Shown here piece by piece: positions 3,444-58,202 of a DNA stretch of 64,000 nucleotides. How positions within the stretch are numbered: position 1 is the first letter of the stretch; each line of letters begins with the position of its first letter. This DNA is from Phoronis australis (lineage: Eukaryota; Animalia; Phoronida), in NCBI GenBank assembly GCA_002633005.1, contig NMRA01000059.1, forward strand, positions 609,883 through 673,882. Reading direction: 5' to 3'. The position numbers and the translations under genes were made by a program. Below the pieces are notes generated by a model. It ran no database searches and was not told the origin of the DNA. It saw only the letters and a program-made list of their open reading frames with translations.

Positions 3444-3680
3444 TTTATACTCGGTGGTGGGGAAGTTTTTATTGGTGACGTTCGGTAAAACCCAGGATGG
3501 CCTTTGGTCAGATGCGCAACTTAGGAAAATTCCCGCGGTCTTGTATTTCAAGACCATGAATGCAAAAATTCTAGTGTCATGGGTTATTCCACTGGATTTT
3601 TTAAGTCGCTTGCTTTAAAATCCAGTACTAATGCGATTCCTATTATTAGAGTGCGCTACAAATGACGTGGGGAATTTACG
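3444..3680 (-). promoter_or_regulatory. TATA box and kB-like sites upstream of member 1
   Basis: TATAAA at 3449-3444; GGAAAATTCCC at 3524-3534; GGGTTATTCC at 3581-3590; GGGGAATTT at about 3669. Confidence 0.55.
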
Positions 3681-5951
3681 CTGACTGAACGTTTCCAGTG
3701 TCGTTTTATGAGCTTTGAGTTGTGAAATTTTGTTTTTTCCATGACGTGCTAATCAATACCCTGTGCTGAGTAAATGTGTTTGAAACTGTTTTTAGACGCC
3801 GACACATTATCGAGTACGTTTGGTGTGTGCGAGCGAATGGAATTTTTTGAGGTTCGTTGGAATACGCTGGAGTTTGTCGATGCGCATTGCCGATTCTGTC
3901 CACCCGACCTCTCACGAACGTATTCGCTTGGAATTTTGAGCGTGTAAATATGCTTGTAACGTTGATTTCTTTATTTCGTTATAACGAGACGGTGTTCATG
4001 ATCACAATAGTTTATTGCTCTTCAACGTTCACTGGTTTTATAGTAACGATCAAGTAACGTGCTTAACACTGACCTATGACGAGCGACTGCGTCTCAATCC
4101 AAAACAAGTCTATGAACGACAAGGTAGGCTATTTGTGACCAAAGTGTAAAAGTTAGAACTTTCTTGTGGCGTTTTGAATGACGTGTCATTCAAGCACGGG
4201 ATAATCACAGAAATATATATAAGACTTTAAACACACATGTAGTATAAAGTGGTTAAATACGTTTGTCCAGTATTCGGCAAAATTCGCTGACAGAGCAGAA
4301 AACATTTTTCAAGATATCCCCTGTATAGTGAATCGTCAGAAAATTGAAAAGTCAACTTGTGTTCACATACATGTAAACTTTTTGATATTGCAATAACGGA
4401 TTAGATTCTCGGCACCCCCACAAATTTGTAGATAAGATTTGCAAATAGTGTGCTCTGAAGCCAACTGTAAGCAAAAAGAGGCCCAAGGTAAGGGTAAAAA
4501 TAATATGGAAAATGCAAGTATTTCCCTGAAAACGGTAGTTATTTGGTAAGGTAAAGGTGGTCGCGCTCGAACTGTTTTCATGCAACCACACCTTTGGTAT
4601 TTCAAGCCCATTACACGTGTACGCTTCACCCGTTTGATTACATAATCAACTACATTATTTTGCAGCACTAAGGGCCATCCTATGGCTTTCTTCACTTTTT
4701 TGTACCGGTAGCCAAACCGCGCTAACCCCTTCCTTCTTTCTTTGGAACATAATAATAAATAATAATATTAATAATAATAGAATAAATTTTATTTCTATAG
4801 GATAAAATACAGTAGATATAAAACATGCTTTAGCCAAAGGCTAATATACAGAATGGTCATCTGTAGCAAAATATTCACTCTATATGGGCTGCTCCATAAC
4901 AGAGCTGTTAGTTGAGGGTAGAGAATGATCAATTATGGCCATGACATTTACTTAAGTGCACTTAATTACAACAATCTAATGTTGAGACATTCGTTGACAT
5001 TTTAGTGCTAACATGCGAAGCAAATATTGCCTTAACTCTATTAAAACTGCATCTTGCGCTGTTGAGCAAGTTAAAAACGAAAATCGACTTAGTTCCTTCA
5101 CTCTCATGATGCAGTCTCGTAATATTCCTTGCCGTGACAGAATTTCATTTCCATTTTTGGATAACTGAATTTTTAATCGATTTGTATACGAAACAATGCA
5201 CGAAGAGACGCAGTGTTGTCAAAAATGAATGCATTCAAGTTATAAAATTACAGATAACACTAAACACTCTTCAATACTTAATGAGACTGAAATAAGAGGC
5301 ATTTTGAAGAGTCACCGACGGTAAAACCCAAAATGTCTGACTGCAGGAATTTCCAGGTATCATTAAAATTGCTCAGTGAAACACAGACAATGACGTGGGT
5401 TTGAATTTGAGAACACATGGAAAAGCGGTTGCAGGCATAAATGAATGGACCGAGGTTTGATGATAAAAAGCATGACATCTCATTTGAGTACACCGTTTAG
5501 GCAGTTAAGGTTAAAAGAAACGTTGTCTGAGTCACCTTTTATCATATGTATGGCTCTGCGCGTACTACGTCAGGCTACGCTCTCCAGGACTAGACGTAAT
5601 GGAAAGTAGATGGCACATCAACAAAGCGTAATACAAAACATATATTTCACAGGTATTTATCAAAACAAATACAAAATCTAAAAAGAGCTATATATACATA
5701 TTGATAAGACTTCTGACGAAATACTTTTTAAAAGCTTTTGAAAAACGTAGGCTCATATTAACACATCAAACGAAGAAATGGTTCTCAAACAGTAACCTTT
5801 CACCAAAACATGTGGTTCAAATTTGTAAAACTTGACTTGACTGTAATTCTCACTCAAGATGGCAGTTCGATCAGGAACTTCATCAAAACTGCTACGACTG
5901 TTGGCCGGTCCACGCAGAGGTCGAGAAATCAGAACGTCGCAGTTATAAGAT

Positions 5952-7017
5952 TTAGTTCTTCGGTTTGGTACACCGGCAGTGACGAACAAGGTAGTTATCG
6001 TATTTGAACTTATTTCTGCGTAGTTTTTGCAGCCAGTTACACCGTCTGGAGTAATGAGTCTCTTCGTACTCCCTGTCATCAAACTTTCCGCAGTCACGGT
6101 GGCACGACAGTTTCAAGTACACTACGTTCACGTCCGGCTCCTCTCTCACCCACTTACATTCCTTACTTGTATGATTCTGTACCGCCTGGCCGTACGTGTA
6201 GCGAATCTCTGGCTTGCCTACAAAGAGGTCAAATTAACATAAATCAATATATGAATTCTTTATCAGCTCTTAGCGGCAACAAACGGACATAATGGTTGAT
6301 TTTTTGATACTAGGTTTCATGACTACGGAGGATAGTTTAATATGTATAAAATGCCTGCGTGATAATGCCTGCTACTAACTATAGGAATGTCAGAAGTACA
6401 CGCTTTTAGGCAATACAACTTATGTAGACACAGCGCGGATGTGTGAAATGCAAACAACACAAAACGCCCTAACTATTCACTCTTAGCCCCCTTTTGTTGC
6501 GTTTGACCAAGTTATTTCGCACGGTCACGAAATGAAAAATAAAACATCGTTTAAAGATAAAACTGTTTAAGGTTTTGTCAGATTGTTGTTGATTCAAGAT
6601 GTATTAATACACATTTAGTGGTCAGATCAAAAGTTTGCGTGTCTAGCTGTTGTTGCGACAACATTGTATAATGCCAAAATATAGCATATCAATTAGTTCT
6701 CGTCTGCGCCGGACTCATTTTGAAAGCTCACAACGGGCATCAGCTGACAGTGAAGCAATTAAAAGCACGATCCCGACCCATTTCAGTTGGCATCAGATGA
6801 AATTTTCTTTTTTCGAAAACATGGACAACTTAAAAATAACCCATCGCAGCATCAGTTTTCAAGAAAATACGAATAGAAACAATTGTGTTGTTTTGTTTGA
6901 CTTGACACAACTAAAACTTTTTAACGAAAGGCACTTACCAGAGATGAAATGAGAAATATCTTCATCCGATTCGCTACTGGAAATAGGTTCAATCCAATCT
7001 TGATCTCTGCATGACAT
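5952..7017 (-). CDS. Family member 2, 114 aa; exons 7017-6939 and 6217-5952
   Basis: aaaATG starts exon 1 MSCRDQDWIEPISSSESDEDISHFIS, ending G|GTAAGT (phase 1). The acceptor is TTTGTAG|GC. Exon 2 is KPEIRYTYGQAVQNHTSKECKW...LSCHRDC...HYSRRCNW...YLVRHCRCTKPKN*. Spliced length is 79+266=345 nt. Confidence 0.82.
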
Positions 7018-7099
7018 TTTCTTCGATTCAGGTTTAAAACGCTACCGCAAAATATTCCGCGAAGGTTAACACAAAAACTGCTTTACACGGTGAAGCGTT

Positions 7100-7415
7100 T
7101 AACTTATAATCTTCGGGTAATTATAGCAAATGGGATTTCCTTGAGATGATTCGTGGTAATACCCACTTGCTAAATGAGTAAAAAGTTAATTAAGTTCGAA
7201 TTCAACAGAATGGAATACTTACGAATGAAAACAACGAGTGACATATGCGCAATATAATTCCAGGTGTCATGGGGTTTCCCCTTGGAAGTTTTTGTTGTGA
7301 CTCAGGTAAAGCCCAACGCAATCGCACTTGAATGGAAACGAACTGAAGGGCTTGAGCTTGCGTAAAACTTTACGGACAAAAATTCAAAGTGTCATAACTA
7401 GGAAAAATACCCGCG
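7100..7415 (-). promoter_or_regulatory. TATA box and kB-like sites upstream of member 2
   Basis: TTATAA at 7104-7109; GGGATTTCC at 7132-7140; GGGGTTTCCC at 7271-7280, which fits the GGGRNWYYCC consensus. Confidence 0.55.
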
Positions 7416-9399
7416 TTTTAAGCATGACATGCATTTTGTCCCGCTACGAATTGATCACTTTTAAGGTTATGTACAATAGGACCATACCGTCAAGTCTGAG
7501 CGTTTAGTCAAATACCTACATACTAACTGAAGATTTTAATTCAGTGATATATGCATTTTTTGAACATAGAAAGTCAAGTTGGATTGCTGACTAAGTACAA
7601 ATATCGTATTAATATGGTCACGTGACCATGTCTTTTCAGTATTATTTAGCCAAATAAAAAGGTACATTCATAATAAAACAACAGTTTCAAGAACATGGAC
7701 AAATTTCATTTCGGACAGTTGCCACCAGGTCATCCTGATCAAGCTCGCCATCTCGTGGGAGAGTAGGGTAGAAGAGGCACACGAGCGGCAGAACTTGAAG
7801 TATGGAGACCTGAAGAATGACTGCCACGTAAACGGCTGGAGATTTTGGAGTTTTTCTGTGGAGGTTAGCTGCCGTGGTTTTCCGGCTAGTTTAGTCACTA
7901 CTATGACGAGGTCTCTAGGCGTCTCTGTGATAGGAATGAAGGCTCTTCTATGCGATGTGGCCACCGAAGCTGAACAGGCATCTTGTTGGATTTGGATGAA
8001 GCACCAACAACAATGCCATCAACAACCGTCAGACAGAGCCTGATCAACTCTGTTGTCCTGCCTACTGGAGATGGTCTTGGTTTAGGGACGAAACCATTAA
8101 GGACAGTAGGAGACCAACGGATGATGACTGTTGAGCACAGTTACATCAAGTGTTTAAAGTATGTTGATGTACAAGATAAAATCTCAGACACGCTATTACA
8201 GTTTTTAAATTACCATTTTGTTTCCATCTTTTGCGACTTGTGAGTTTCTTTATTGAATTCACAAAAGTCCTATTATTGATCGCTCCTGATGCAAAGTTGG
8301 AACACTTAAAAATAGTCTCTAACATCTAACAAAATTTTGTGGAGCAGTTAGGCTTAATTACAATTCCTGAAAGTTCATACGAATCCAATCAGACATATCT
8401 TAAATATAATGTTCCCAAGTTAGCTAAATACTCCCACATGACCATAACGCGTTAGACTTCTATATTTCTCGCAAGTAATATCATATTATTTAATCCGTGA
8501 CGTAAATAAATGAAAATAAACTAAAGCAAGCCAGTTATTTTCAAGTTTTTATTCGCAAATTTCATTCAGATTTTTGAACCTCCAGAATCAGAAGTAACAA
8601 ATTATAATTTTGAAATTTCACTTTTATGCGAAGACTTTTATAAAAAGTACACATAAAATACTTTTACGAATTGTTAATCTTACTTTTTGAAATAAATGTT
8701 ATGAGTTATCCACTCCTGCGAGCTTCTCGAAAACTCACCCACGCAGGAAAACAATTGTTTATCGAAAATCAACTGTCATTTTGAACTAAAAGTACCAGAA
8801 CCCTGCCACTAACTTTTCATAACTTTCCGGAGGATTCCCTGATTGCGGAAGTTGAGGGAGTTGACTGAGAGTGAAACAACCATTTCTTTATTTCATCTTT
8901 ATTCGATTTAAAAAATACATATTACCTGTTTTTGATTTAACTTGTTACATAAAATGTTCATGCAAGTCTTTTGTGCTAAATTTTCCAGAAAATTTCCACA
9001 AAATTTTTACTTAATGGGAGAAGAAAGCCAACAATTCCTCACTTTTTGTGTGCTCATGCGGCAAACTTTTAAAAGTGCGAAAGGCACTCTGGAAAATCCG
9101 CAAAAAAGACTCGTATCAACGGGCCTGTTAGGGTCGTTACCATTGGTTACAATAACTAAGAACAACCCCATATTCATGTTTTATTCCTTTACCTGCTACG
9201 TTATAAAGGCAGACAATTTGTAAGTATCCTGAATAGAGACCCTTGGTAGATTCAAACGAGAACTCAACCTCAATTTGCACGATTGAGGAAATATACATTG
9301 AAATGTGCACGTCGTGTTATATCCAAAGTTCCGACAACGCAAATGACGCCTATATTGAAAAACGGAAAGTTGAAACAAATATCAGCCTCTTAACTTCCT

Positions 9400-9909
9400 C
9401 TACAAAATGGTGCAACCACATATATCATCCGATATTTGCCTCAAGGGCGGTTCCCTTGGTGTCGTGCACCTGCAATGGCGTATGCAGTATTTATCGATAC
9501 TCCTAGTATGATGGTGGTTCAAGTCGATTTCGAGCCACGTGCAGTTATTGCTGAAATGAATTTCTCTCTTTCCGTCCTTGTACTTGCCGCAAGAACATTT
9601 GAGACGAAACGTGCCGGTCTCTTCATACCATTTGCAATCTTCTTTCTTGTGGTTTTGAATTTCCAGCTTATACCTATATGGCGACCTTTCAAAACCTACA
9701 AAAAGACACTGACAGGATAACAATCATAATCTGAAAACAATGCAAGATATCCACTTTCAGTTAACAGTTTTAATCACGGCTGTCATGTCAATTTAAGGAG
9801 ACCCGTTAATACTTTTTCAAATGGTAAACTGAAAGAAATTCAAAATTCTACCGTAGTTGTTCTCGTACGAACTGTATTCAGACTCATATTCTATAGGAAC
9901 TTCATCCAT
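9400..9909 (-). CDS. Family member 3, 117 aa, ending in CGCTIL; exons 9909-9852 and 9695-9400
   Basis: aaaATG starts exon 1 MDEVPIEYESEYSSYENNY, ending G|GTAGAA (phase 1). The acceptor is TTTGTAG|GT. Exon 2 is FERSPYRYKLEIQNHKKEDCKW...LKCSC...HFSNNCTW...IRHCRC...DDICGCTIL*. TATATAA lies about 86 bp upstream of the ATG. Confidence 0.78.
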
Positions 9910-12059
9910 TTTATTGCAAGAAGATACACGAAATAAATGTTGTTCACCAAAAGCAGAGATCAGCATAAATGGTCTCAAAATATTCGACTTATATATCCTC
10001 TTGCGTGGAAAACCCCCCCCACCGAATGGTTCAGTTTCATCAGGCAAAAGTGATTCCGGGTTTTTCAGATTCTCATTGCCAAGCAGCAGGAAATTTTGCT
10101 CGACGTAAAATCCTGGCGTAATACACGGTTCGATGAGCGTCGTCTGATCTTGGTACGACAAAGAACTATGGAGTAATGTTAGCTTGGAAATATTATCGAT
10201 TGCAAGGATGTCGAGAGAAGAATAAATTTCGTTTGTCTTGGATGGGGATTTAACTTGACAAAGACTTGATGACGGAGGAAGAAGGTAGACTCACCCTTCT
10301 CCCGGCTCCCGGAGAGGTATTCACTATTTTTACAAGGGTAAGCTGTTAGAAAAATAGTTAGTTAGAAAGTGACCTCTATAATACAATTTGTAGGGAGCTT
10401 CAACGATGAATAGCCGCACCTTCCTACAGCTTTGCCCCTTTAAAGTCATAGAGGACGAGACTAAAATTGTGCGTTCCAAGCTCTTTTCCAGAAACGAAAA
10501 GGAGACTAAAGGTTACTATAAATAGGTCATAATTCTATGACTTGTGAACAGTGGTACAAAATAGTGTAGGAGAATAGTAAATGGTTATAAAATAACATTA
10601 TCATTTGAAAGGTGGACATTAAAAAACAGCAGCATGGAGGATCGAGAACAAACCCAAGGAGGAGTAGGGCGGGGGGCGGGGGTGACGTTGACATAACCTA
10701 ACATTATCTTGTGCAAAATCACCCCCTGCCTTTTTCAGCTGCTGCAAAAGGCTGATTCGAAATTGTCATTTTGAGCCTTTCCTTGACAACATGTAGAACA
10801 CATAAGGCGGTATGGTATTTAAAGTAAAACAAGACATTTGTAGATGTCTGCCGCACAATAGTGTATTCTAAGCAAATGTGAGGTTCATTGACAATAGTAG
10901 GAAGAAGATTGTCACATCTTGCTCTAGCTGCAACGCTCCGTTTTTTATCCATTTTGCCGGTTTTGGGGGAAAATTTTATCGATTTTATGGGTCACATACA
11001 ATGAGACAAGGCCATATGTGACAACGATTTCCAGTAAAGTTATAATTGATTACATGTACTTTTAAACGGAAAAGACATAGATAGTGAAATGGCGCTGTGC
11101 ACTCTCGTTCGGAACTGGAAAGGATAATTACTGCGCGATGGGGGAGTTGATAATGGCACGGACACCCCAGTAAAATATCGATATAAAAGTTTAATTTCAC
11201 AGGAGTTCCATTATCCAAAACTAAGCTTCACTGTTCCATATGTTACACACATGGACACTTCAAAGGAAATGTCTGTAATTTTGGAGTTGCTCGATGACAT
11301 TATTAATGCTTTGAAAGTAAATAACTATCATTTAAAGCGGCTGTAAATTCGGGAATCGAACTTTTGATTTGGACTACTTACAGTCATGAAATCTGTTTAA
11401 AAGTGTTCCTTATTCAGATCGAGAAGCGATTTAGGGGTTTGCAAAGAACTGACATTTTATGCTTAGCGCATAAAATGAAAAGTCTGGAGAAGCCAATTTG
11501 TGGAGCCTGGTGTCAAACAGTAACGGAAGTAGCCATCTTGTGGCGCCTGATGACACTAATTACCAGTTTTTTGAAGCCCTGAAATTGTCACCTCCAATTT
11601 TACCAAGGAACAGTTTTGTAGCAGTAAGTGGGTCTTATTCAAAAGTTATTTTTGATATGGAACTCGGTTTAAAAACCTCCTTAATTAACGACGGAAAGAC
11701 AATAAACGCTAAAAAGTGGTGACACTTTATTCTTTTTGAATGTGAAAATAGTATTATAAACCTATATCATAGATCACAGTACATAACACTGATAAAAGTT
11801 ACAAGTGGAATAATCAAAAATCCAACTGTAGTAGGCTTTCACAAATAAAGGGTACACTAAATACCATGCTTTGATAGTACTTATTGTAGAACGACTGAGA
11901 AATCTGCTAAGAACGATATCCACTTCGTGTAAACACTTTTGAGAAAACACCACCGTAACTGTGCCCGCATATATCACACTAAGTGTTTGACATTGACTCA
12001 ATAATAGTACACAATGTTGGTGGAGGTGCAAGCCGCCACTTGCCTTCACTCTAGAGTCC

Positions 12060-35336: not shown

Positions 35337-35375
35337 ATGAGTGCTCGACCTCCAATTCCCCACAGAAAGTGGAGA
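35337..35375 (+). other. Orphan exon-1-like sequence (MSARPPIPHRKWR|GTAAGT)
   Basis: aaATGAGT start, Pro/basic peptide, strong donor, and a kB-like GAAATTTCCC upstream at about 35053. It is phase 0, however, and I found no matching exon 2. Confidence 0.35.
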
Positions 35376-44049: not shown

Positions 44050-45064
44050 GAAGAAACAAACTATTGGTAAAAAACGCACCAAGAAAAAGAAAGCAAATTC
44101 TATCATGGTTTTNACACATATATATGACTCATTAATAAAAAAATAAAACAGGTGCTTGCATTCCTAGGACTCCTGCATAAAAGACAACAATTTTCTCTGC
44201 CTTCTACGCATCATGTGAGTTTATTTCTTATGATATTGTTTGAGTAAACTTTTGTGAAAAAGCGCGCAGTTGTTAGTCCTTTCAAAAGCTCCTGAGCTCT
44301 GGTCAATGTGTTGTAAAATAATGTGATTAATGACACTCTGACATAAATCCTATTATTTGGCAAATACTATTCTATATTATCCTTGTTTTGTTTTATTTGT
44401 CCCCAATAAAGGTTCATTAATAGAGAAACATTCTTGTGATAAGGTTAAAGTTTGAATTATAACGACTGCCGTATTATCGGGGACGTTTTTCTTGAAATAA
44501 TAGACTTGAGAGGCTTGAAATACAATTATATAAATGGTTTACAACCTTCCGAGAACTAGAAAGTGTGAGTTTCTTGATTATTTATTGTATTCGGGAAGTA
44601 ACAACAGTATCTCTATTTGTCATCAGGAGCACACACCTCCTTGTAACAATATTCATTGTTGCCGAGTGTTCTAGCCCACATCAGCTGGGCCTAGCTAGGT
44701 GGCCACTATATTCTCCCTTGTGATGATGGTGTTTAAATAAATGACACCGAAACCTGTCAAGTCCTGTGGTTGTTTTTATTAAAATAACAGTAAACAGCGC
44801 AAATACATGTACATTGAAGCTCGTAATGTAGGAATAGCTCAAATTTCTTTATAAAATTCAAATTCAATACATAAACACATTTCATTCGGCAGTCACCAGA
44901 CGATTTATGCTGGTGATGCCGGGCTCGAAAAAAGTCTTTCAAACTGTCCGTGTTTAAGATCAATGCAATAGCACCTGATTCGGTGGGGAAACCTGCTGTT
45001 CGGAATATTTATTTACAAGAACAACAGCTTGTGTATTACACAATCGTCGATAAATTACGTAACT

Positions 45065-45192
45065 GTGCAAGGGAATTTTACCAAAGCATCGAACAATATA
45101 ACACTCGAATCTACAAAAACAAGGAGCGGGAATTTTTGTAAAATTCCCGAGCGGGAATTTTTGTAAAATTCCCGATGGGAGCTATATTAACC
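45065..45192 (+). promoter_or_regulatory. kB-like palindromic tandem and TATA upstream of member 8
   Basis: The 25-bp unit GAGCGGGAATTTTTGTAAAATTCCC occurs twice (45124-45173). TATATTAA lies at 45183. Confidence 0.55.
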
Positions 45193-45273: not shown

Positions 45274-46181
45274 ATGAGTTGGAGACACGTTTATCCAAAA
45301 CCTCAACGAGGTAAGATGTTTATTTTTAATGAACACTACTTCTAGCTTTTGTAAATTGTGAAAAATATTCATTTAACTTGATATATGACTTTGTCTATGT
45401 CGTCATATTGTTGTAGGTTCTTAGCAATTTTCAAGTGGGACTGATTTATTTTTTAACCAAAGGTATACAATAGGCAGACAAAATGTAATTGAAATAAATT
45501 TTCTTTTACCTATAAGTTGTGGATAATGACTGATATTTCCCATTTTACTGGGTTTGACGAGGAACTCTAACTTGCTATTTATGTTAACTGCGCATATTCT
45601 TGACCTTGAACTTCAAGACGCACTAGTTTTCAAAAACGTTTAAATTTGTCCTCGTCGAGATTCCATAAAATCTGTCAATGAGTCTGTATATGGGTCGCAA
45701 TGTAAGCTTATGTGATCACGGGCTTCGCTTGTAATACATGGCGATATTTCGCGAAGTCTTGCGTGTTTTTTCGTTTTCGTGAATTTCTCGCCTATTACAG
45801 AACTCATCAGTTGGAAAGCAGGTGGGTTGTCGTGTTTTGACAATCCGATAACTCGATAGGAACATGACATAAGCCCAACTATATACAGCCCAACTATACA
45901 CAGCGTTGCCCCTAGCAATTTGACGTTTTGTAATTATAGATGACTACTTCAACCCCAGCGACCTACCTAAAAACGGAACATGGGAGATGCATACAAATAG
46001 TTCTTGTCGATGGGAACGGCACTGGGGCAGTAACTGGATGCGACGGTGTTACTGCTCCCGGTACACTTCCAACTACGAAGACTTCCACGGAACGCATGAT
46101 TGTGTTTGGTTTCGACGAGAATATAATGGAGAGTACTTCTTCATACGCCGCTGCGTCTGCGGAAGCACGTACTCCGGCTAG
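45274..46181 (+). CDS. Family member 8, 92 aa; exons 45274-45310 and 45940-46181
   Basis: Exon 1 is MSWRHVYPKPQR G|GTAAGA. The acceptor is TTATAG|AT. Exon 2 is DYFNPSDLPKNGTWEMHTNSSCRW...RRCYC...FHGTHDCVW...RRCVCGSTYSG*. Spliced length is 37+242=279 nt. Confidence 0.87.
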
Positions 46182-47448: not shown

Positions 47449-48471
47449 ATGAGCAGACCTGTTCATCCCAGGAAACAGAGAGACCACGGTAAGAACAATT
47501 TACACGTAAGCTGAAAAAAAAATCAGAAGAAAACATTTGATAAACTAATTTAATCACACTTCGTCTATGATATGTTTTGTAAACATTGTATGAACCGCTT
47601 TACTTCACATGTTTCTGAAAAAATGTCTACTTAGATTTTTTCTCTAGAACCAAAAAGAATTGTTACATTTTAGATGTTTTTGTTAACACGTCTTAAGAAA
47701 AACGTGCTCCCGAAATACGTTTTTAAATGTAACAACCCTGCCCATGTGGCACACACTGAGCCACAACACCACGTTCGTTAAAATATCTCTTTTTATCACT
47801 CCGGCTGGTCTGGTCACTCAGCTTGTCCGGAACCTGCTTTGCAGGTTGTTATAGCCCATTTGGCTGTTTGGTGTACCCACTTGGTACTTTATATGATATT
47901 TGCCCATTTGGCAGTCTGTACCCACTTGGTACTTGTTATTGAATTTGCCGTTTTGCTCGACCCAGTTGGTAGGCAATCGGCCAATACCCATTTGATATTA
48001 TGTACCCACTTGGTACTATACTAACATGTGCCACTTAGTAGCCGACACTCAATTACACGTTGGGTATCGCAAATCCAGTGTGATCACTTATTTAAGGTAC
48101 CCATCTGGTACCGTCTGTGAAATAATTATTTTAGAGCTGTGAGCCTGAAATTTATTTATCCCCAATAATTCATTTCAGAGCCTAGAGTGTGGAAGCACGG
48201 TGATAAATATTTACACGGGTCGTGGGAGATGCACCTGGATCCTTCGTGTGCATGGTCCCAGAAGAAAATAGAAGTTCCAGACTTTTTCTACGAAATTACA
48301 TGTACAAGGACGTGTAAATTGACGCGGCACTGCTCTTGCAAACGACACAAGGACGAGCCCAGAGAAAAGCACTACAATGCGGAATGTAATTGGATCAAGA
48401 AAGAATACTACAGCGCGAATCCTAACGAATTTTATTTGATGCGTCGTTGCCGATGCAAAGCGTTCAACTAA
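47449..48471 (+). CDS. Family member 9, 110 aa; exons 47449-47488 and 48179-48471
   Basis: Exon 1 is MSRPVHPRKQRDH G|GTAAGA. The acceptor is TTTCAG|AG. Exon 2 is PRVWKHGDKYLHGSWEMHLDPSCAW...RHCSC...HYNAECNW...RRCRCKAFN*. It is a close paralog of member 7. Confidence 0.85.
47735..48168. mobile_element. ~430-bp insertion in the intron of member 9
   Basis: Absent at the equivalent position of paralog member 7 (tttaaatgtaaacatttcatttcag, 43741-43765). Homologous to 12820-13200. Confidence 0.8.
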
Positions 48472-50179
48472 GAAAACGCAAAGGGCTGGTGGAACACATA
48501 AAAAGCGAACTCTGTCATAGTTGTTCAACCCTATCACCTTTTAAATTTAATTGGAGTTGCTTGGACATTTTGCAGCGATATTTTTGTCTATAATATACTC
48601 ATAAACATTTTTGACTATCTTCTTTAAACACTTAATTGTTGCCCTAGGACTCCTAGTTTATAAAAGACTTTCTTTACCTTCTACGCATCATATGTCAGTC
48701 TATTTCTTATGATATTGAGTGGGCTTTTCTGAAAAACCGCACAATTGCTAGTCTTTGTCCAGAGCTCTAGACAATATTTTGTTAAATAAAGATTCGTTAA
48801 CAATAAGAAGCATTCTTGTGATTGGGTTGAATTTTGAAATCTAACACCTCCCGCATTATTAAGGATATTTTTCTTGGTTACAGATCGGAGAGAAAAGAAA
48901 GACTTGAAAATATGGTTAATTTACGTTACACTGTTTGGGACCAGGGCCCGGGGTCTAATCTTTGCACTCGAAATCGGACTCGAAAAATATATGACATTCT
49001 CCATTCTACTCAAATATGATGCACATCTATTATTTTGCGTTCAACTACGATATGATTTACTTAATAAGTGTCAATTAGTATGATTCCAGCACTAAAGCGA
49101 CAGGTTCAAGTATAAACTCGAAATTTCGAGTTTTTACTTGGATTTGAGGCTTCAATCTAGGGGTCACCACCTTTAAAGTGGATTAAAACCCCCCATCGGC
49201 GTATATGATAATGTAGGCTACAGAGTAAAAGAGACTAATTTTGAGTTTGTATTAAAAGTTAATCATAATTTCGCGTTCGATTTCGAATTAAAATACAAGA
49301 CCCTATGCCCAAAACTCCGTAGATTATCATGTTTCCGGTAGCAATAAGTGCGTGTACAGTTGTAAAAGCATTTACGTACCTAGTGGAAATCCATGGAAAC
49401 CATAGGTGAGATAATGTTTCAAGCTAATTTCCAGTTTGTTAAAACACCGAGTAAACAGCCCTGGTAGTGTTACGTAATCTGACGTTAGAATTCTCGAACA
49501 TAAATTGTTGTCTACTGCTAATTTCAGAATATCGCGCTCACCTAAATACAAAGCACTACATCTCGTCTGATTGTGTGGCTCACCAAGGGCGTTGAACAGG
49601 AGTGTTTCCTTTAGATTATTCTTTGGAAATAAGTTTACTAGATAAGTTGATTTGCCGTTACATAAACTGATGAATTTCACTATGACGTGTTTTCATTTTG
49701 TTTGATCGGTGCCCCTGAGGATTATAAAATACATACAATGTATTACCCTATCCATAAATACTTGCTCTATCAATACATTAGGCGTATAGAAATATTAGAA
49801 ACTTTCTAATCTACTGATTTTGATTCGTCATGGTCATAAAAGTACACTACCGTGGCTTTCAATGGAGCCAACTACATGTAGGCGTACACGGATCCGCTCA
49901 ATAGAACATTCAGTTCCAATGACTCTGATCAATACACACCTGACAGAAAAAACCCGGCCGTCAATATCTGTTTATAACCACAAGGAAATTCACTGGAAAT
50001 AAGTACTACGGCTATTTATAGTTTTGCTGTTGTAACATTTTATTGTGTCGAGTTAGTCATGATTTTTAGTGAAATTCCCGATGGGGGCCATATAAACCGT
50101 CCTTCACGTTGTAAGGATAATCCAGTAGGAGATTTTGTCTACATCGTAACAAGTCAGGCAACCGTAGTGAACAGACAAA

Positions 50180-51425
50180 ATGAGTTTCAGATCCGTCAAT
50201 CCACGACCTCAAAAAGGTAAACTGTTTAGTTTTAAAACTACCACACTTAGCTTTTGTAGATTGTGAGAATTATTCATTACGCTTTATCTATGACGTTGTC
50301 TATGTCGTCATATTGCTACAATTTCTTCGCAATTTTTTACGGAGACTTGTATATTTTTTAACCAAAGGTATTCAATTTGTAGGTTAAATGTCATTGAAAT
50401 AGATTAATTTTTGAGTTTAAGTTGAGGATAATGACTGATATTTCGCATTTTACTGGATTTGACGAAGACGGCTTTTTTGATGTTACGTCTGCTGTTAACC
50501 AACTTAAAGGGACAGTAGTTTTCAAAAATAATTAAATTTCCCCCACTCGAGAATTCATTGAAATCCGTTAATTTTTAAACTGTTGTTGTGCCCTTTGGGC
50601 ACTGCGCGTTTGTGCGTTTTTAGTATCAATTTGCTCCCGAAAAGTGAAGATGAATGTTTTCTAACTGTGGCGGACATGCATCTTTTTGCGTGTTCTGTAT
50701 TAAACTACTTTTGTTTTAAAACATATGTGTCAAGTAGTCATTGTAAATGTCGACTAAATTCATTTCATAAAAATTGGACACAACTCAGCTACAAATTTTA
50801 AAAGTCATTTCAGCTACAGAGGGCAGACTTTAATCAAAGATAAACAATAACAAATTGAACGATATGTTTGACACCCTGTATAAGTGAACTGTGGTAACTT
50901 GTATCCGAGAGCATATTTATTCGTATGTTATCGTCGTGTTTTGTAGATATAAGGATTTTCCCAAGAAAGCTAATGTAATCACGTGCTTCGCTTGAAATAC
51001 AAGGCGTATTTCGCGAAGTCTTGTGTTAATTTGCAAGATCCTTGCCTCTACGAAACGCACACCCATCAGTTGGAAAGCAGATGGGACGTCGCGTTTTGAC
51101 AATTCGGTACTTTATAAGAACACGTCACAAGTTCAAACATATGTGCATACACCCCTAACAATTTGACGATTTTTCAATTATAGATTACGAAGCCCCCCCT
51201 ATCGATCTTGCTAAGAACGGTACATGGGAGATGCATACAAAAAATTCCTGTGCATGGACGAAGTATGACAGTACTAAGTGGAGGAGGACTTGTAATTGCC
51301 AACCGAATAATAGGTCACGAGTAGATTACCACGAAATGTCAGCTTGTGATTGGTTTAGACAGACATATCAAGGAAAGTACTACTTCGTCCGCCGCTGCGT
51401 GTGCGGATCCACTTACGCCGGTTAG
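50180..51425 (+). CDS. Family member 10, 92 aa; exons 50180-50216 and 51184-51425
   Basis: Exon 1 is MSFRSVNPRPQK G|GTAAAC. The acceptor is TTATAG|AT. Exon 2 is YEAPPIDLAKNGTWEMHTKNSCAW...RTCNC...YHEMSACDW...RRCVCGSTYAG*. TATAAA lies at 50091. It is a paralog of member 8. Confidence 0.87.
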
Positions 51426-52293: not shown

Positions 52294-53252
52294 CATCCTC
52301 ACTTGTCGGTTTTACAACCGGTTTTTAGCCCAGTGGCCGTACCAAAAGTTACAATCTACCAGTTTGTGCAGGACAAGTCTATTCTTTCAGTCAAATTTGT
52401 ACAAAACTAAAAATTAACTCTGTAAGATTTCGTACTTTCTGAGTTAGTAGAAAGCTTTTATTTTATGCTATCAATGGGGGAGTCACATTATGTCCATGTC
52501 TTTGTATCAAATTGTCGTCTTAAAAATAAAAAGGGGACATTCATAGCAAAACAACGGCATCGATAACAAAGTTCATTTGATTTAAATGTCTTTAAACACC
52601 ATATTACAAATATGAAACCCCAAACACTACGCTGCTGGAATTTTCTAAATTGGTCTTAGTTTCATGCATTTTTTTTTGATTTTTCAGACATGTAACACAA
52701 GTCCTATTTTGATAGACCCTCGTACACAAGGGGAACATTTCAAAGACATTTTCTAGCAGTGTTTTGTAAAGCAGCGCACAAAGCGTAGTTTGTGGATGTT
52801 ACAGCGATTTCTGAAATATGAGGTTCCGAAGTTGGTCAAGTCGTATTTAAATGTTTACTCAACCACGCCCACAAGTGCCTTTGTACTGGTTCTGACCATC
52901 CAGGCATTACGTTCCACCCATTCTAAATAAAACAGACCTTCACGAAAAGAGAGACCTCGGTTCGAACAGAAAACTACAGTATATAAATTACACCACGCGT
53001 TTAGCAAAACCCAGATGGGATCAAGCAATAGAGGCTAACAATTCAGTTGGGGGAAACCCGAGTCATGGACTGCGCGGGAAATCTTTCACCAGACTTTCAA
53101 AGATAGATTTTGGTGTGACTCACTTCGCCGAAGAAAACACTTGGGAATTTTTTCCAAAATTTCCCGAGAAGAACAGTATAAAAAATCTTGTTCTGTTTGC
53201 AAGACGAATTTCTCTGTCTAACTGAAACTACCAACACCTACGAAGAGGCAAA

Positions 53253-53923
53253 ATGAGCGGCAGAGGCTCTATTGCTCCTCAAAAACAAAAAGGTAAGACT
53301 GGTACATTAATCAGCGTTTCCTTTTTGATACCCACTATACAGATTAATTTATATTTTGTGAACGCTTTCAGTATGCAGCTTCGATCCAATTTTCAAAATG
53401 GATCAAAAACAGTGTCAACACATATTAATTAATATTGAGATTTTCTTTTTAAAATCAATGTCAGCACTAACGCGTTGTCATGTACAAAAGTTCATAACCG
53501 CCACGGGTACTCAAGCATTTTTATACAAAGTCAACCAATGGCATATTACGTTGCATAAAATACGTAATTTTGCACAGATTGTCTAATTTTAATACAAACA
53601 AAAATCTTGCTTTGGAAATACAACATGAAAATTCCATAAGGTCAACCGCACTGACGCTCATTTAATTGCAGATAATTACTACGACAGTCCTTACGATTTC
53701 GAACTACCACCAAATGGTACGTGGGAGGTGCATGAAGATGAAGAGTGTGTATGGGAGAGGAATAGCGACCAAAATTGGATTCGACGGTGTTATTGCGCGT
53801 AACTATGAAAACGACGTCAAAGACGAACATGATACACCCGATTGCGTTTGGTTTAAACGGGAGTATCGGGGGGAATATTTCTTCATTCGCCGTTGCGTTT
53901 GTGAAAGTCCATACTGCGGCTAG
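53253..53923 (+). pseudogene. Family member 11 with a single frameshift; exons 53253-53292 and 53672-53923
   Basis: Exon 1 is MSGRGSIAPQKQK G|GTAAGA. The acceptor is TTGCAG|AT. The exon reads ...PNGTWEVHEDEECVW...RRCYCA* with TAA at 53800-53802. Repeat 2 (EHDTPDCVW...RRCVCESPYCG*) is intact in a shifted frame. Confidence 0.78.
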
Positions 53924-55928
53924 TGTCAAACCGTTTTAGATTTACAGATGGAACTTTGAACAGACACAATTATTTGACTTTACAAGTTCGTCATTAGGAA
54001 TATTTAGGCATTAGCGTTGAAAGACGATTTGACATATTTCAACTTACGGAACACAGCCCTTGATGAGCAATGAACACTGAGACGATGATGATCTCATGTT
54101 TTTTATGTCTTACAAGAAACATTTACCTTCATCTCTAGTTAAAACATTTAAAGCAGTCATTTGTCACGTAAGGATTGCGACAGGGAGAGGAGCGTTCGAT
54201 TTTCGAAGCACATCCTCAATGTGCTATTTTGGCTTTGATACATGTATACTGCACCCGCCGCGTGAGGTGCAACAAGGAGTTAGTCTTCGTACACCTGTAT
54301 TTCGATATGATTAATTAACGTTTTATTAATAAAAGTACATGTGTAAGATATATGTGTGTTTATATTCAATGATTGTTATGATAAATTGCCATAAAACAAA
54401 ACACTTGTGCCTATGCGAAACACTCGGCTACTGTTCGAGACTTCACTCGAAAACTGACCTAACTCACATCGAGCTAAGTTAGACTCCTGCTACACAATTG
54501 GCCAGTTTCCTCGTGAGGTCTCCGGTCATTTGTCGTGCACACATCAACAAAACCAAACGCACTCGCAAGTAGAACAATGCAAAAATGGAGACATTGAATA
54601 GAAATACATGTGCGTCATCACTGTTGACAATGACCATTAATTGTAAGGGGTAGTCGTGGAAAAGTTAAATTGAGAAGATGCGTTCTAATGCAGAAAGACA
54701 ATTTTTCTAACGTTGCCGAGATTGCGGTGTAAATATCTTTAAGGCTGTTTTAACAATCAGTCGAGACGCCAATGTCCACCTGTCAGTAAGTTAAGGCCAC
54801 GCCTTTTAGTGACTTCACTAGGAGAAGGCATAACGTAAGTGTAGAAAAAGGCGTATTTAAGGGGATACTATCGGCGAGAAAATTTTCTAATGTCAGATTC
54901 AACGTGTGACTGAACCTGGAAGCCCCTCGCTCCCTACCAAACACTGTCCTGGAGGAGAAAACTCCCTCTCGATAACTGTTGCACCATTGAACTGGTGTCA
55001 CCGGCTTTGATTTTAGCGAATGTCTGACAGAAAAGCTATGATGATTGAGGATTCGTAATTAAAAAAAACCAACGGATCTTGTTGTTTTACATCTTTGGTC
55101 ATAGCTAACATCAGAAGCATTTACAAAGCCATGGCAACGGGTCACGAGGTTACACCTTTAACTTTTAACTTCGTCACCGGCTTGTGCATATGGATTGGTT
55201 TAAACTTCACATTGGATCAAAAGATAATATTAGTTTTGGTGGCCATGAAAATAATGTACATAGACTCAAGACGACTTATTGAAACAAAAGAAAATAAGTC
55301 ATTCATAGCATGCGTAAGGTCGACTTTATTTTTTCACCAAGTCATCGCGTATTTGTGAAGAATTTATAACTGTGTTTTTAAAGAAGTGAAGGTAATTTAT
55401 CGCTCCACAGTTGTTCGATTATAAAAACGAAAGCCCGAAACATGACTGATTGCAAAGCAGACTTGGTATAAGCTGACAGTAAAGTGCGAGAATAACGCGG
55501 CAGGATTAGTTAAGTTTCGAGACTAAGTGCGAGTCGAGACTGAGTTCGGAGCATAAACTCTCATGGGATTTGGTTTGTAACATCTTCAAAATTTTCGAGC
55601 TCACACTTTCAAGAGTTTTAATTATAAATTCATTACGATTTCATGCTATATTTAGTTTTTTAAAAAAGGCCCGAGTCACTGAGATGGGAAAAACCCCGTT
55701 GAGTTACAAGTTTTATTTTGCAGCTTGCAGGAACATTCGTGCCACAAAAATAAGTGTGATGCGGAAAATTTTCCATAATTCGGAATTACACAATACAAGC
55801 GTGCGGGAAATTTCTCGTAAAATTCCAGTACAATCTTATAAATTCGTTGTTCTCGAATGAAAATTTAGTCCAACGAAGGAAAGTTTCTAAATACAACAAC
55901 AAACCAGAAAAACGTGTGGAGAAGAAAG

Positions 55929-56858
55929 ATGAGCGGCAAGAAACCGATTGGTCCAAGAAAACAAACAAGTACTGTAAGACTGTTGTATTTCATTGGAAAT
56001 TATTTGGGATGAATTTTGAATAGAATAGACTTGTGGAAGTTAGCTTTGAGCGAAGTTGTAAAACCACAAATGCATTGTCTTTGTAAATTTATTACAAATT
56101 TCCAGATATCGCAATTGCCTGTCAAACATTCGGTGAAATCTAGGCAGACGTCTTTCAATAAGTACTGGCGTGTGATCTGGCTCAGTGGTAAAGCGGTAGC
56201 CAGCTACTGACGAGTTAATGAGTATGATTACACACTGTTGCTAATATCTCAAGATTATTTCTCTCGCAGAGAATGTCCCTGCAACAATTAAATAGCAATG
56301 AGTTTTGTTCTTAGCATTAAATATCGGTTTAAATCCATCCAATTACATACTCAATACCCGGTGACGGTCACTACATGCAATACAGCAGTATTTTTGTACC
56401 TTGGTTAAATTATGTACTCATTTCTCCTATTTCTTTTAAACACAAATCTAGAAAACAGAGAAACTTGCAATATTGGAGTGAAGGATATCTGCCTACTGAA
56501 GACAAAGGAATCTTATTAGCATTGGTGAGAATATGCAACTTTTAACTTACAAATTACAGGAAAACGAGAGATTTATACCTACGTATTCGGTACTTTTTCA
56601 GTTGAATATGGCAGTCGTACCAACGAAACCACACAGGGAACTTGGTCTGGATGGTTGAAGACAGTTGGGAGTGCTCTCATTGGATCTTGGCGCTGTGTTT
56701 GTAAATGGGTGCCAAGCACACAGGCGGTTTTCCGTTCCGTGGGCGGTGGTACCGGGGTTGGCGGTCGCTCGAGCGGTGGTCACCGGGGCGCCGGTTACCG
56801 GGGCGGCGGTCATTCGAGCGGCGGTTCCCGGGCCGGAGGTCGGTCTGGAAAGAAATAA
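55929..56858 (+). CDS. Gly/Arg/Ser/His-rich derivative B, 98 aa; exons 55929-55968 and 56602-56858
   Basis: Duplicate of 37900-38979 with a tail 135 nt shorter, in frame. The donor is altered to A|GTACTGTAAGA by a 5-nt insertion. Confidence 0.6.
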
Positions 56859-58202
56859 TTCCTCCCCACGTTGCTGCAACAGAGCTGGCAGTTATTTTGC
56901 TAAGCTTTAAAAACAAGAAATAGGACGGTACCACAACCATAGATTGAACGAACGGACTGTAAAAAGACATTGATGCGATTGTGACGACAGATAAAGAAAC
57001 AGTAAGAAATACCAGCTTATACAGTGTGTACGAGGTCATATCGTCGATAATTATAAACACATAACGTTGGGACTGCATCAAAAATGTACTGCTGGTCCAG
57101 CAGTTGTGACGCTATAACATCTACTAAAAATGTTTTTTTACCAAATTAACTGCTAATAGTTTTCTTTATTCAGTTATTTACTCAGGTTGATTAATCAGCA
57201 TTCACCGTACATGTAGCTTAAGTGTACAGACAGTCTTTTGGAAAAAGTAAAATTCTTTTCTCACGAATTATCTTTTCTCACGCACCGCATGTTGTCTTGG
57301 CCAAAGGAGACTGTTAATGCACGATTCACAGAAGAAGACGACTGAATAGATTTTGGTTGTCTGGCAGTCTATTGCGAACCTGGCACTGAGTAGTTCTTTA
57401 ATTGTCTTGTTGGGCAATATCCTTACAAGGACTGACGGGTTTTTGTTCTGATATTTTCTGCATAGGGTGAATGATTTTTTTTCATAAAAACTGCTGATTC
57501 ATGTAAAAACAGTTGAATTTTGATGTACACTAATTCTGTTCCTTTCTCAGACAAGAACCAATTTTTGGGCTAAAAATAAATTGAAAATCTGACAATTGGT
57601 AATAATTGCTTGAAACCATGCTTGGCGCATAAACTCATCACTATAGTGTCAGGCAACATTACTGAACTTGGTCTTAGAGAACACGAACTGTTAAGTCTCA
57701 TCGAGCCCTGAAATCATATCTAATCTGGGTAAAGAAGGAGTTGAGGCCAATTTCATTTAACAGTTAGTTTTCTAAATAAAAACTTGAACTGAGCGGCCGC
57801 TTGAAATATCAGGGGTCCCAAGGTCTACAGTCCCAGTGAGTGTTTCCGTCTCAACTTATTAGGCTCATACCTACTACCACGCTTACTCAATAAATCGATT
57901 TTATCCAGTAAAGCCTGCGTCACTTGGAAAAACCAATCTTGTTAGACATTCTTGAGGAAAAAATATTACCGAAGAAATTCCCATTCTCCTAATAACTATT
58001 ACGCGAGATTTTCCCCTGTAAATGTCATGGACATCGTTCAATACACACTTTAAGCTGCATTTTGTCTATTAATAGCCTGTGATGTTTTTTTCTAAAATTC
58101 CCGAAGAATACCGTATAAAGTCTGTGTGCCGCAAGACAGATCCAGTTGAAGAATTTTCTACGACTAGATTAGTGTCGCTCTTCACAGCTGTAACGAAGCA
58201 AA

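Follow-up and report, generated by a model that had tools for sequence, protein, structure and literature searches.

The 64-kb stretch of DNA analysed here (the window) contains 14 short coding units that form a tandem family (Table 1), with gene models of 86–143 amino acids. Twelve of the 14 units encode a signal-less, all-beta domain, and ten neighbouring small genes of the family share a TATA promoter with Rel-type sites. Splicing was confirmed by RNA reads for six genes (G1, G2, G10, G12, G14 and G15), drawn from three similarly sized samples whose conditions are coded (X1, X2 and X3). Paralogs differ with a dN/dS of 0.21–0.54 (six usable of nine comparisons). The product of G7 combines a degenerate half-domain with a Gly/Arg/His-rich tail, and the frameshift that the assembly shows in G13 at 53796 is missing from three of three X3 reads.

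Table 1. Genes, promoters and relics of the array; read counts and depths are for X1/X2/X3.
Feature	Position	Strand	Details
G1 exon 2	1807..2093	-	Cys/His two-repeat domain; spliced reads 7/8/34
G1 coding exon 1	3289..3361	-	acidic Ser-rich leader; phase-1 intron
G1 promoter	3443..3770	-	TATA 3449; Rel-like sites ~ -10, -44, -75/-85, -132/-141, -220
G2 exon 2	5952..6217	-	spliced reads 2/1/25
G2 coding exon 1	6939..7017	-	
G2 promoter	7102..7420	-	TATAAG 7108; strict kB site 7271; more at -7, -24/-32, -293/-304
G3 exon 2	9400..9695	-	minus-strand depth 0.57/0.8/9.0
G3 coding exon 1	9852..9909	-	acidic; spliced model is an open 117-codon frame
G3 promoter	9989..10250	-	TATA 9995; strict kB site 10007
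G4 exon 2	26367..26593	+	neither exon 1 nor promoter found
G5 exon 2	28109..28358	+	frameshift near 28295 in assembly; exon 1 uncertain
G6	30582..30842	+	intronless, possible retrocopy; start like exon-1 peptide; promoter uncertain
X35, orphan exon 1	35337..35375	+	relic; Rel half-sites upstream; no TATA, no exon 2
G7 promoter	37490..37814	+	TATA 37808; sites 37657, 37734; head-to-head pair -32/-11
G7	37900..38979	+	exon 1 37900-37939; exon 2 38588-38979
P8, promoter relic of G15 copy	40415..40810	+	kB site 40636; TATA mutated ~40735; exons deleted
G9 promoter	42900..43221	+	TATA 43215; seven GGGRAW half-sites, partly from internal ~130-bp duplication
G9	43291..44049	+	exon 1 43291-43330; extra G11-type exon 43462-43501; exon 2 43766-44049
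G10 promoter	44980..45189	+	TATATT 45183; head-to-head Rel-like pair, tandemly doubled, -55..-10
G10	45274..46181	+	exon 1 45274-45310; exon 2 45940-46181; spliced reads 0/2/7
G11	47449..48471	+	exon 1 47449-47488; exon 2 48179-48471; no TATA or Rel sites
G12 promoter	49950..50097	+	TATA 50091; one GGGAATTT half-site at -12
G12	50180..51425	+	exon 1 50180-50216; exon 2 51184-51425; spliced reads 1/2/19
G13 promoter	52980..53183	+	TATA 53177; 94% like G9 promoter
G13	53253..53923	+	exon 1 53253-53292; exon 2 53672-53923
G14 promoter	55520..55843	+	TATA 55837; 98% like G7 promoter
G14	55929..56858	+	G7-type, Gly-rich; exon 1 55929-55968; exon 2 56602-56858; spliced reads 0/0/3
G15 promoter	57920..58120	+	TATA 58114; half-sites 57974 and -12
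G15	58203..61121	+	exon 1 58203-58239; exon 2 60841-61121; spliced reads 2/0/2

Promoter architecture

An initial annotation had placed TATA boxes 75–92 bp before the start codons. All nine boxes that it listed lie at 76–92 bp, one of them at 43215 instead of 43214; it did not mention that the first three genes lie on the minus strand, and a tenth box, at 55837 (G14), escaped it. In the direction of transcription, the distances to the ATG are -88 (3449), -91 (7108) and -86 (9995) on the minus strand and -92 (37808), -76 (43215), -91 (45183, TATATT), -89 (50091), -76 (53177), -92 (55837) and -89 (58114) on the plus strand. Across the window, such a box stands at -95 to -70 for only 89 of 2213 ATGs (4%). 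Transcripts begin 44–51 bp after the TATA, as in G1, where read 5' ends pile up at 3398, 51 bp downstream. A reversed half-site 7–13 bp before the TATA is found in 10 of 10 family promoters and at 4 of 244 other TATAs; this pattern was chosen post hoc, after seeing the data, and represents about four independent cases because common ancestry links seven of the ten promoters.

All six kB-like motifs quoted in the initial annotation are in place, ending 12–163 bp upstream of their own TATA with strand respected, and the expected Rel/NF-kB enrichment over the rest of the window is present, as scored with consensus strings instead of measured matrices. GGGRAW occurs 33 times in the 400 bp upstream of nine ATGs, against an expectation of 5.12 derived from the remainder of the window (about 6-fold), a count reached by none of 300 dinucleotide shuffles (mean 7.95, maximum 17); counting each near-identical pair once (seven genes) gives 27 against 3.98. 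Unbiased k-mer ranking, on a set that took in the guessed TATA of G6, put GGGAA first among 512 5-mers (20 versus 3.4), with GGGRAW in eight of eight promoters. Family TATAs have 1–6 half-sites within 300 bp compared with 0.42 on average at 183 TATAs outside the family, the initial 300 bp of nine introns hold two, and 28 of the 64 window hits of GGGRNWWYYY fall within 5.7% of the window. Most promoter sites are T-tailed or half-sites, not strict 10-bp kB sites; the strict GGGRNWYYCC is confined to three of nine promoters (3 versus 0.12 expected). Clustering before every TATA, as originally described, fails for G12 (50091) and G3 (9995), which have a single GGGRAW each, and the 400 bp before the presumed ATGs of G5 (a guessed start), G6 and G11 contain no such site.

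Are the shared motifs simply inherited leftovers of one ancestral promoter, devoid of present function? Plus-strand segments spanning the core promoter and exon 1 are 55–62% identical across subfamilies, above the shuffled mean of 47% and maximum of 54%, and are therefore weakly homologous, so that the proposed independence of the grammar from alignment does not extend to them. Local duplications in G9 and G10 supply some of the site counts, and sites persist in a dead promoter, the pseudogene promoter at 40636, confirmed here as the remnant of a copy of the 58114 gene that has undergone deletion. The proposal does stand for G1, G2 and G3, whose promoters alone are unalignable (43–51%) and still enriched (GGGRNWWYYY, 6 versus 0.56; GGGDWWWWCC, 4 versus 0.10). 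With enrichment and fixed spacing kept in three promoters of no detectable similarity, and with co-varying expression, we regard functionless inheritance as highly improbable.

NFAT or NFAT5, responding to calcium or osmotic stress, could instead act on GGAAA half-sites, in which case the family would answer salinity or injury and not microbes. Many sites are indeed half-sites, and the NFAT-type words WGGAAAW (12 versus 3.24) and TGGAAANNY (6 versus 1.18) are enriched. These counts overlap the same sites as the Rel counts, however, the strongest word carries a third G, and full pseudo-palindromes such as GGGGTTTCCC occur, which makes this alternative quite unlikely. Loose C/EBP-type sites are present in seven of eight promoters (14 versus 4.95), whereas GATA partner sites (WGATAR, 2 versus 5.27 expected) are not enriched in the promoters. 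Homodimers of c-Rel and RelA recognize T-tailed sites and half-sites of GGAA type, which at Il12b are arranged in tandem (10.1101/2024.01.23.575293), and RelA binds GGAA(A)TTTC (PMC3936734). On the motif statistics, co-regulation of the array by a predicted Rel-homology factor is well supported, and a Rel-family factor probably acts on these promoters, the logic of which is textbook.

Expression of the array

Spliced reads of the six genes number 12, 13 and 90 in X1, X2 and X3, respectively, a 7.8-fold higher level in X3 after correction for library size (P<0.05 in five of six genes). The depths of G3 and G13 are likewise higher in X3, and a neighbouring repeat transcript is down about 5-fold. 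G11, which has neither a TATA nor Rel-type sites, is almost silent. Expression does not track the number of sites: G9, with seven half-sites, yields little RNA that is not raised (0.3/0.43/0) and G15 barely responds, whereas G12, with one half-site, is raised about 14-fold. Reads are mostly 90–99% identical to the window, and alleles, paralogs or gene presence may therefore differ by animal.

The concerted rise in X3 is compatible with a shared on/off switch; differences in tissue, stage or individual could also account for it. The earlier interpretation is partly supported, in Rel-type co-regulation and co-variation, with infection or stress as a putative trigger; the high state corresponds to one coded sample of three. 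A Rel-homology factor might accordingly drive tissue- or stage-specific expression, with X3 differing from the other two samples in tissue, stage or animal. In favour of this, expression of G1 is seen in each of the three samples, and developmental functions of NF-kB are documented in holozoans (PMC13042239). Against this reading, which we consider unlikely, stand the dense proximal Rel-type sites, the loose C/EBP-type sites and the focused TATA promoters, as well as the fusion of the encoded domain to TRIM proteins, which leans to immunity. Inducible genes typically combine dense Rel-type and C/EBP-type sites with a focused TATA. Induction of the array by challenge or stress is fairly likely.

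The encoded domain and its distant homologs

The domain consists of two His-x4-Cys...Cys-x-Cys repeats (a doubled Cys3His pattern). All 18 aligned sequences share His17 and six Cys, and 17 of them share His49, which is replaced by Cys in G6; the alignment left out the frameshifted G5 and G13, the truncated P0004 and the degenerate G7 and G14, and ligand conservation is partly built in because homologs were found with a Cys/His-rich profile. G7 and G14 are unmatched by the family HMM and most of their ligands are missing. No Pfam or PDB match was found for the domain, and a Pfam scan of 10 exon-2 products showed neither RING nor B-box. AlphaFold models six strands (pLDDT 76.5), and the first hairpin is variable, with 12–27 residues between fixed Cys. 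Signal peptides are absent from 11 exon-1 peptides (maximum 7-residue hydropathy 0.86), and no upstream leader exon is seen because RNA 5' ends lie just after the TATA. The products look cytosolic, and zinc binding by the conserved His/Cys residues is predicted as likely; a cytosolic zinc-type binding module is the likely identity of the domain.

Small, signal-less proteins with eight conserved His/Cys could also be stress-induced metal buffers of metallothionein type, or redox sinks, to which a TRIM fusion would be incidental. However, there are only about six Cys per 80–95 residues, together with conserved aromatics and a folded beta model; the promoters have no metal-response element (TGCRCNC, 0 versus 1.87 expected), and the variability of the hairpins and the attachment to an E3 scaffold are in keeping with a binding module. 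We find this option improbable. Slightly more so are direct antimicrobial effectors resembling insect peptides, disulfide-bonded and released non-classically. The exon-2 domains are mostly cationic (pI 7.8–9.3 in 10 of 11) and Trp/Tyr-rich, G7 and G14 bear Gly/His/Arg-rich tails, and the insect kB consensus GGGRAYYYYY (PMC11116330) occurs five times in seven promoters. Yet signal peptides are lacking from the exon-1 peptides and from seven standalone homologs, His occupies ligand positions and is swapped for Cys in G6, GATA partner sites are not enriched, and the domain occurs in cytosolic TRIM proteins.

Nine distant homologs were recovered at modest E-values (3e-6 to 8e-4): five named standalone proteins from bryozoans and bivalves, two unnamed ones and two RING proteins of the bryozoan Watersipora, one of them named 'tripartite motif-containing protein 5-like'. 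A profile built from outside homologs recovers the window genes, and standalone and TRIM forms match each other by BLAST (E 3e-12 and 2e-15). In the two Watersipora proteins, P0005 and P0008, the domain sits C-terminal to RING, B-box-like and putative coiled-coil segments. The RING of P0005 scores 35.2 bits against a Pfam cutoff of 27 (zf-C3HC4_3), whereas that of P0008 is weak, below the cutoff (E 0.007); the B-box is a regex Cys/His pattern match only, with no Pfam B-box at E<=0.1, and the coiled coil a crude heptad score. Many TRIMs are not immune proteins. In TRIM5, capsid specificity is determined by the C-terminal domain, and the fusion of domains is a sign that they are functionally coupled (PMC2533329). 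The fusion seen here points to intracellular immunity. The domain is absent from the TRIM C-terminal domains in the excerpted texts of PMC2533329 and PMC3503706; both the domain and its fusion to TRIM proteins seem to be undescribed so far.

Model and comparison with known systems

We propose the following model. An NF-kB/Rel factor would switch the ten genes on together upon an immune or stress signal, presumably infection. Rel dimers would bind T-tailed and half-sites, the kind accepted by c-Rel/RelA homodimers, and the site 7–13 bp before the TATA may put the factor beside the basal machinery. The His/Cys residues would hold zinc in a predicted two-zinc beta-hairpin domain, with the variable first hairpin setting specificity. 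The domain would bind targets inside the cell, a role that it would also have when placed at the tip of a TRIM ubiquitin ligase, and free domains could serve cell-intrinsic defence as sensors, adaptors or decoys. The genes of the cluster likely form an inducible immune module that works inside the cell, not a set of secreted antimicrobial peptides, and on balance we lean towards a Rel/NF-kB co-regulated array of cytosolic, probably zinc-binding, target-binding modules for intracellular defence. Immune target recognition by the domain is possible, if short of likely. We also speculate, with considerable doubt, that invertebrates possess in this domain a new cytosolic module for pathogen recognition, the functional counterpart of the TRIM5 SPRY/cyclophilin tip, deployed both TRIM-fused and as an NF-kB-inducible free array with a hypervariable hairpin, and diversified by swapping promoter–exon 1 cassettes against exon-2 domains across a uniform phase-1 intron.

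Sea-urchin IL-17, SpTransformer clusters and coral SCRiPs are tandem, short, few-exon, Cys- or Gly-rich invertebrate families that are defence-linked and secreted with signal peptides. The array resembles them in being tandem, short, few-exon and Cys- or Gly-rich; searches by sequence and by fold gave no match to any of them. Cystine-knot cytokines (IL-17, Spaetzle) were not among the listed fold-search matches, and the missing signal peptide argues against such an identity. The highest-ranked of the listed structures for both domain models was the N-terminal domain of Vaccinia A46 (PDB 5EZU), with Z 4.3, rmsd 2.9 and 59 aligned residues for the first and Z 4.8, rmsd 3.0 and 63 of 67 aligned, a lead of 1.6 over the runner-up, for the second; both Z-scores are below the tool's chance range (7–8), identity is 10–12%, and Foldseek returned no match at E<=0.001, so we treat the apparent likeness as a lead only.

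As in insect antimicrobial peptide genes and mammalian Il12b, a TATA core is combined with several proximal kB-like sites, many of them T-tailed or half-sites (PMC11116330; 10.1101/2024.01.23.575293). Unlike kB-driven immune promoters, those of the array have no GATA partner and a reversed half-site at a fixed 7–13 bp before the TATA, and unlike the peptides of such genes, the products lack a signal peptide and belong to no known peptide family. The Drosophila antimicrobial peptide analogy drawn initially fails on both the signal peptide (none) and GATA (2 versus 5.3 expected). TRIM C-terminal domains, too, are found in unrelated proteins (PMC2533329). Like TRIM5alpha with its SPRY domain and TRIMCyp, which have a C-terminal recognition domain, the two Watersipora proteins place the present domain at the C-terminus, behind a RING, a B-box-like pattern and a heptad-rich segment, whereas the window genes, in contrast to TRIM E3 ligases, encode the free domain alone, without RING or B-box.

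Gene family and its cassettes

We consider it somewhat probable that the genes described here form a Rel-switched array of intracellular target-binding modules. The window, with 38% GC and spliced animal genes, holds a tandem family of 14 coding units and two relics. For eleven units the model has a short first exon, separated by a phase-1 intron from exon 2; G6 is intronless, and no exon 1 was found for G4 and G5. The block at 36.5-42.8 kb duplicates that at 54.3-62.0 kb, which makes G7 and G14 a pair, differing at 2 of 26 synonymous and 4 of 91 non-synonymous sites, and the promoter relic P8 a deleted G15. The tail of G7 and G14 replaces most of the domain and varies in length between copies.

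G9 and G13 have a promoter and exon 1 in common (92%) and an exon 2 from different subfamilies. One contig from the RNA run X4 links a G9/G13-type exon 1 (43263-43327) to a G10-type exon 2 (45944), and may represent another allele, a paralog or an assembly chimera. Such mixing of promoter-plus-exon-1 cassettes with exon-2 types always falls across phase-1 introns. The exon-1 leaders of G7 and G9-G15, on the plus strand, are basic, Pro-containing and 12-13 residues long, those of the minus-strand genes acidic and Ser-rich, possibly as different localisation signals; none of the exon-1 peptides is hydrophobic. Frameshifts occur in G5 near 28295 and in G13 at 53796, the latter absent from the reads of RNA sample X3 (3/3) and therefore either a fault of the assembly or a null allele.

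Coordinates and RNA of individual features (RNA as X1/X2/X3, three coded samples of similar size)
Feature	Position	Description	RNA
12 units		His-x4-Cys-x-Trp-hairpin-Cys-x-Cys, twice	
G1			7/8/34 spliced reads
G2			2/1/25 spliced reads
G3			depth 0.57/0.8/9.0
G7	37900-38979	degenerate half-domain + Gly/Arg/His repeat tail, 143 aa	
G9 vs G13	43020-43346 vs 52982-53307	promoter and exon 1 similarity	
G10			0/2/7 spliced reads
G12			1/2/19 spliced reads
G13			depth 0.15/0/1.18
G14	55929-56858	degenerate half-domain + Gly/Arg/His repeat tail, 98 aa	0/0/3 spliced reads
G15			2/0/2 spliced reads
Repeat	12768-13653	strong minus-strand transcription	depth about 380/360/77
Repeat copy	47748-48152	partial, inverted, inside G11 intron	
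Repeat copy	44317-44409	end fragment	
Remnant	7670-8150	frame 7591-8040; presumably akin to a non-LTR retrotransposon in its C-terminal endonuclease region	light, both strands
Dispersed repeat	12061-12216, 33769-33923	short, inverted ends	abundant, from many flanks
Tandem array	51997-52293	about 49-bp unit	
Palindromes	15605, 15768, 16569 (within 15600-16700)	three good kB-like sites, no family exon nearby; possibly an enhancer or dead promoter	none in any of four runs

Rel-like sites in the family promoters

The initial annotation had described a TATA box before each ATG with clustered NF-kB/Rel-like sites, and had read this as infection or stress inducibility; the observation stands with corrections, the interpretation as a whole in part. 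A TATA lies 76-92 bp before the ATG in the nine genes it named and in a tenth that it had missed (TATA at 55837), and chance alone places a comparable TATA before 89 of the window's 2213 ATGs. All six kB-like motifs it quoted are where it placed them; its TATA boxes at 3449, 7108 and 9995 belong to the minus strand, and their motifs lie upstream when strand is taken into account.

The predicted enrichment is borne out. With general consensus strings (save GGGRAYYYYY, given in PMC11116330) and the rest of the window as background, the half-site GGGRAW occurs 33 times in the 400 bp upstream of nine ATGs against 5.1 expected, a count reached by 0 of 300 shuffles; with one gene kept per near-identical pair the figures are 27 and 4.0. 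An unbiased k-mer ranking placed GGGAA first of 512 5-mers and GGAATTT top of the 7-mers. Half-sites within 300 bp number 1-6 per family TATA, against a mean of 0.42 at 183 other TATAs; in the first parts of nine introns there are two in total. A guessed G6 TATA (30170) is included in the k-mer ranking, the family-versus-other-TATA and intron counts and the 20-motif panel below; the 33-versus-5.1 count, the minus-strand and T-tailed counts and the TATA-adjacent rule are without it.

The strict 10-bp site GGGRNWYYCC is present in only 3 of the 9 promoters, the remaining sites being mostly half-sites or T-tailed variants (GGGRAWTTYY, 7 versus 0.11 expected, in four plus-strand promoters). Among the family promoters scanned, no Rel-like site was found upstream of G5, G6 or G11. 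The signal had been said to hold between flanks that do not align. This is so for three unalignable minus-strand promoters, which are enriched (GGGRNWWYYY, 6 versus 0.56 expected; GGGDWWWWCC, 4 versus 0.10), whereas weak homology links the plus-strand promoters (55-62% identity versus 47% shuffled), so that about four cases are independent. That the shared motifs are an inherited relic, as the homology might suggest and the minus-strand promoters do not, we regard as highly improbable.

A reverse-oriented Rel-like half-site ends 7-13 bp before the TATA in 10 of 10 family promoters and at 4 of 244 other TATAs (9 of 10 and 5 of 244 in a stricter version), a pattern chosen post hoc from sequences already viewed, with P values accordingly overstated. 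In G7, G9, G10, G13 and G14 this half-site belongs to a head-to-head pair, which begins at -30 to -34 and of which it forms the right arm.

Among 20 motifs tried, STAT, IRF, RBPJ, GATA, CRE, ARE and MRE showed no enrichment in the family promoters, and AP-1, HSE and ETS were borderline. NFAT-type words are likewise enriched, which counts against the Rel-array reading and favours NFAT or NFAT5 as the factor, in our judgement a distinctly unlikely assignment beside the GGGAA-type signal. An E2F-like TTTSSCGC was rejected as a general explanation: it overlaps a site in G7/G14 and G9/G13 only (2 versus 0.15) and is absent from G1-G3. AU-rich elements numbered two across five 3' regions, with no enrichment.

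Transcription of the array

The RNA comprises three stranded runs from a single study and an older set of contigs, and was compared with 1.5-17.5 kb and 42.8-61.3 kb of the window. It confirms the predicted GT-AG joints of G1, G2, G10, G12, G14 and G15, and read or contig 5' ends fall 44-51 bp after the TATA in five cases, the distance expected when a TATA directs the start. Together these six genes have 12/13/90 spliced reads (X1/X2/X3), 7.8-fold after library size; G9 shows no rise in X3 and G11 is near zero. The repeat transcript at 12.7-13.7 kb drops five-fold in the same sample in which the family rises, so the rise is not global. It is co-variation, not induction, the high state being that of a single coded sample, and control of expression by tissue or stage, though unlikely in our view, could take the same form. 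Expression does not follow the number of sites (G9 versus G12), a further point against the Rel-array reading.

Reads joining 13647 back to 12768 (233/198/10) indicate a circular RNA or head-to-tail copies of the repeat elsewhere. Rfam gave no match in the window, and for the element at 12.6-13.8 kb only two rows attributable to chance.

The encoded domain, its relatives and a model

The six usable comparisons between paralogs give a dN/dS of 0.21-0.54; the proteins are therefore under constraint. Among the differences listed (40 of 102), 18 of 20 read-versus-window differences in G10 and G15 change a residue, mostly in or beside the first hairpin, against a neutral share of about 80%, which hints at relaxed or diversifying change. 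The domain tree separated the members poorly, with 1 of 15 branches starred. AlphaFold predicts an all-beta fold containing two hairpins (pLDDT 64 and 76.5 for the two models); VIA put the N-terminal domain of vaccinia A46 at the top for each (Z 4.3 and 4.8, within the chance range) and gave no Z of at least 5 for either, which does not establish a new fold. There was no real Pfam match for 10 exon-2 products and 7 standalone homologs, no PDB match by sequence, no usable ESM Atlas match for two family members, no hit in an exact look-up of 5 ORFs, nothing at E<=0.001 with Foldseek in PDB and viral libraries, and no confirmed case among 83 pattern matches in a metagenome scan.

Word-based homolog searches gave 18, 523 and 23 candidates, none passing; relatives were recovered only when HMMER was run in full over 1.84 billion representatives, with nine matches (E 3e-6 to 8e-4). 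Their occurrence in bryozoans and bivalves hints that the window comes from a lophotrochozoan. Of the nine, five are standalone proteins with names, 102-138 aa long and found in Watersipora subatra, Bugula neritina, Mactra antiquata and Mya arenaria; two more are unnamed, and the last two are Watersipora proteins of 376-383 aa, XP_067948808, named 'tripartite motif-containing protein 5-like', and XP_067951882. Both of the latter have a RING at the N-terminus (passing the Pfam cutoff in XP_067948808 only), a B-box-like pattern and a heptad-rich middle. They end in the domain, and this part matches standalone Watersipora proteins (E 3e-12 and 2e-15). The RING/B-box/coiled-coil plan is common to TRIMs, which regulate immune signalling, according to PMC3503706 and PMC9334734, respectively. 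The family genes are not TRIMs themselves. Many TRIMs are not immune proteins, which also counts against the Rel-array reading.

All 18 aligned sequences keep one His and six Cys, a second His is present in 17 (Cys in G6) and Trp residues vary; the profile-profile probability is 98.8%, and an outside standalone-homolog profile recovers the window genes, checks that are not fully independent, the relatives having been picked by a Cys/His-rich profile. The same residues would suit metal buffering by the products, to which we give little credence; MRE is among the motifs without enrichment.

For the Rel-switched array we propose the following model, in which we infer Rel binding, the trigger, zinc and the target alike. 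A signal would free a Rel dimer, several such dimers would load on the proximal sites, the TATA-adjacent one included, and the loaded array would be transcribed together. The products would stay intracellular, their fold built about a pair of Cys3His metal sites and displaying a variable hairpin; the domain would bind a target, and free forms may act as sensors, adaptors or decoys. This last step follows TRIM5alpha, whose C-terminal domain sets capsid specificity, and the logic of TRIM C-terminal fusions as a mark of functional coupling, both from PMC2533329.

What is the relevance of these genes? Here a promoter motif leads to an unannotated family whose domain is met again in bryozoans and bivalves and stands at the end of TRIM-type ligases, and promoter motifs can point to the function of orphan genes. 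No description of the domain or its TRIM fusion was found in sequence and structure libraries or the literature, nor of the fixed TATA-adjacent site in databases or the literature, which is weak evidence of absence. Tentatively, and with considerable doubt, the domain may be a new module for cytosolic recognition in invertebrates, with shuffling of cassettes. Should its targets be microbes inside the cell, or products of these, it would be an extra recognition module for invertebrate cell-intrinsic immunity, and the 80-residue domain, compact promoters and fixed site next to the TATA would make a cheap testable system.

TATA with clustered kB sites is an ordinary, known promoter type, also that of the Drosophila antimicrobial peptide genes with which the initial annotation had compared the family. 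The comparison fails beyond this type, and direct antimicrobial action by the products seems to us slightly less credible even than metal buffering. Unlike the antimicrobial peptide genes of insects, those of the family encode proteins without a signal peptide, from promoters without GATA enrichment.
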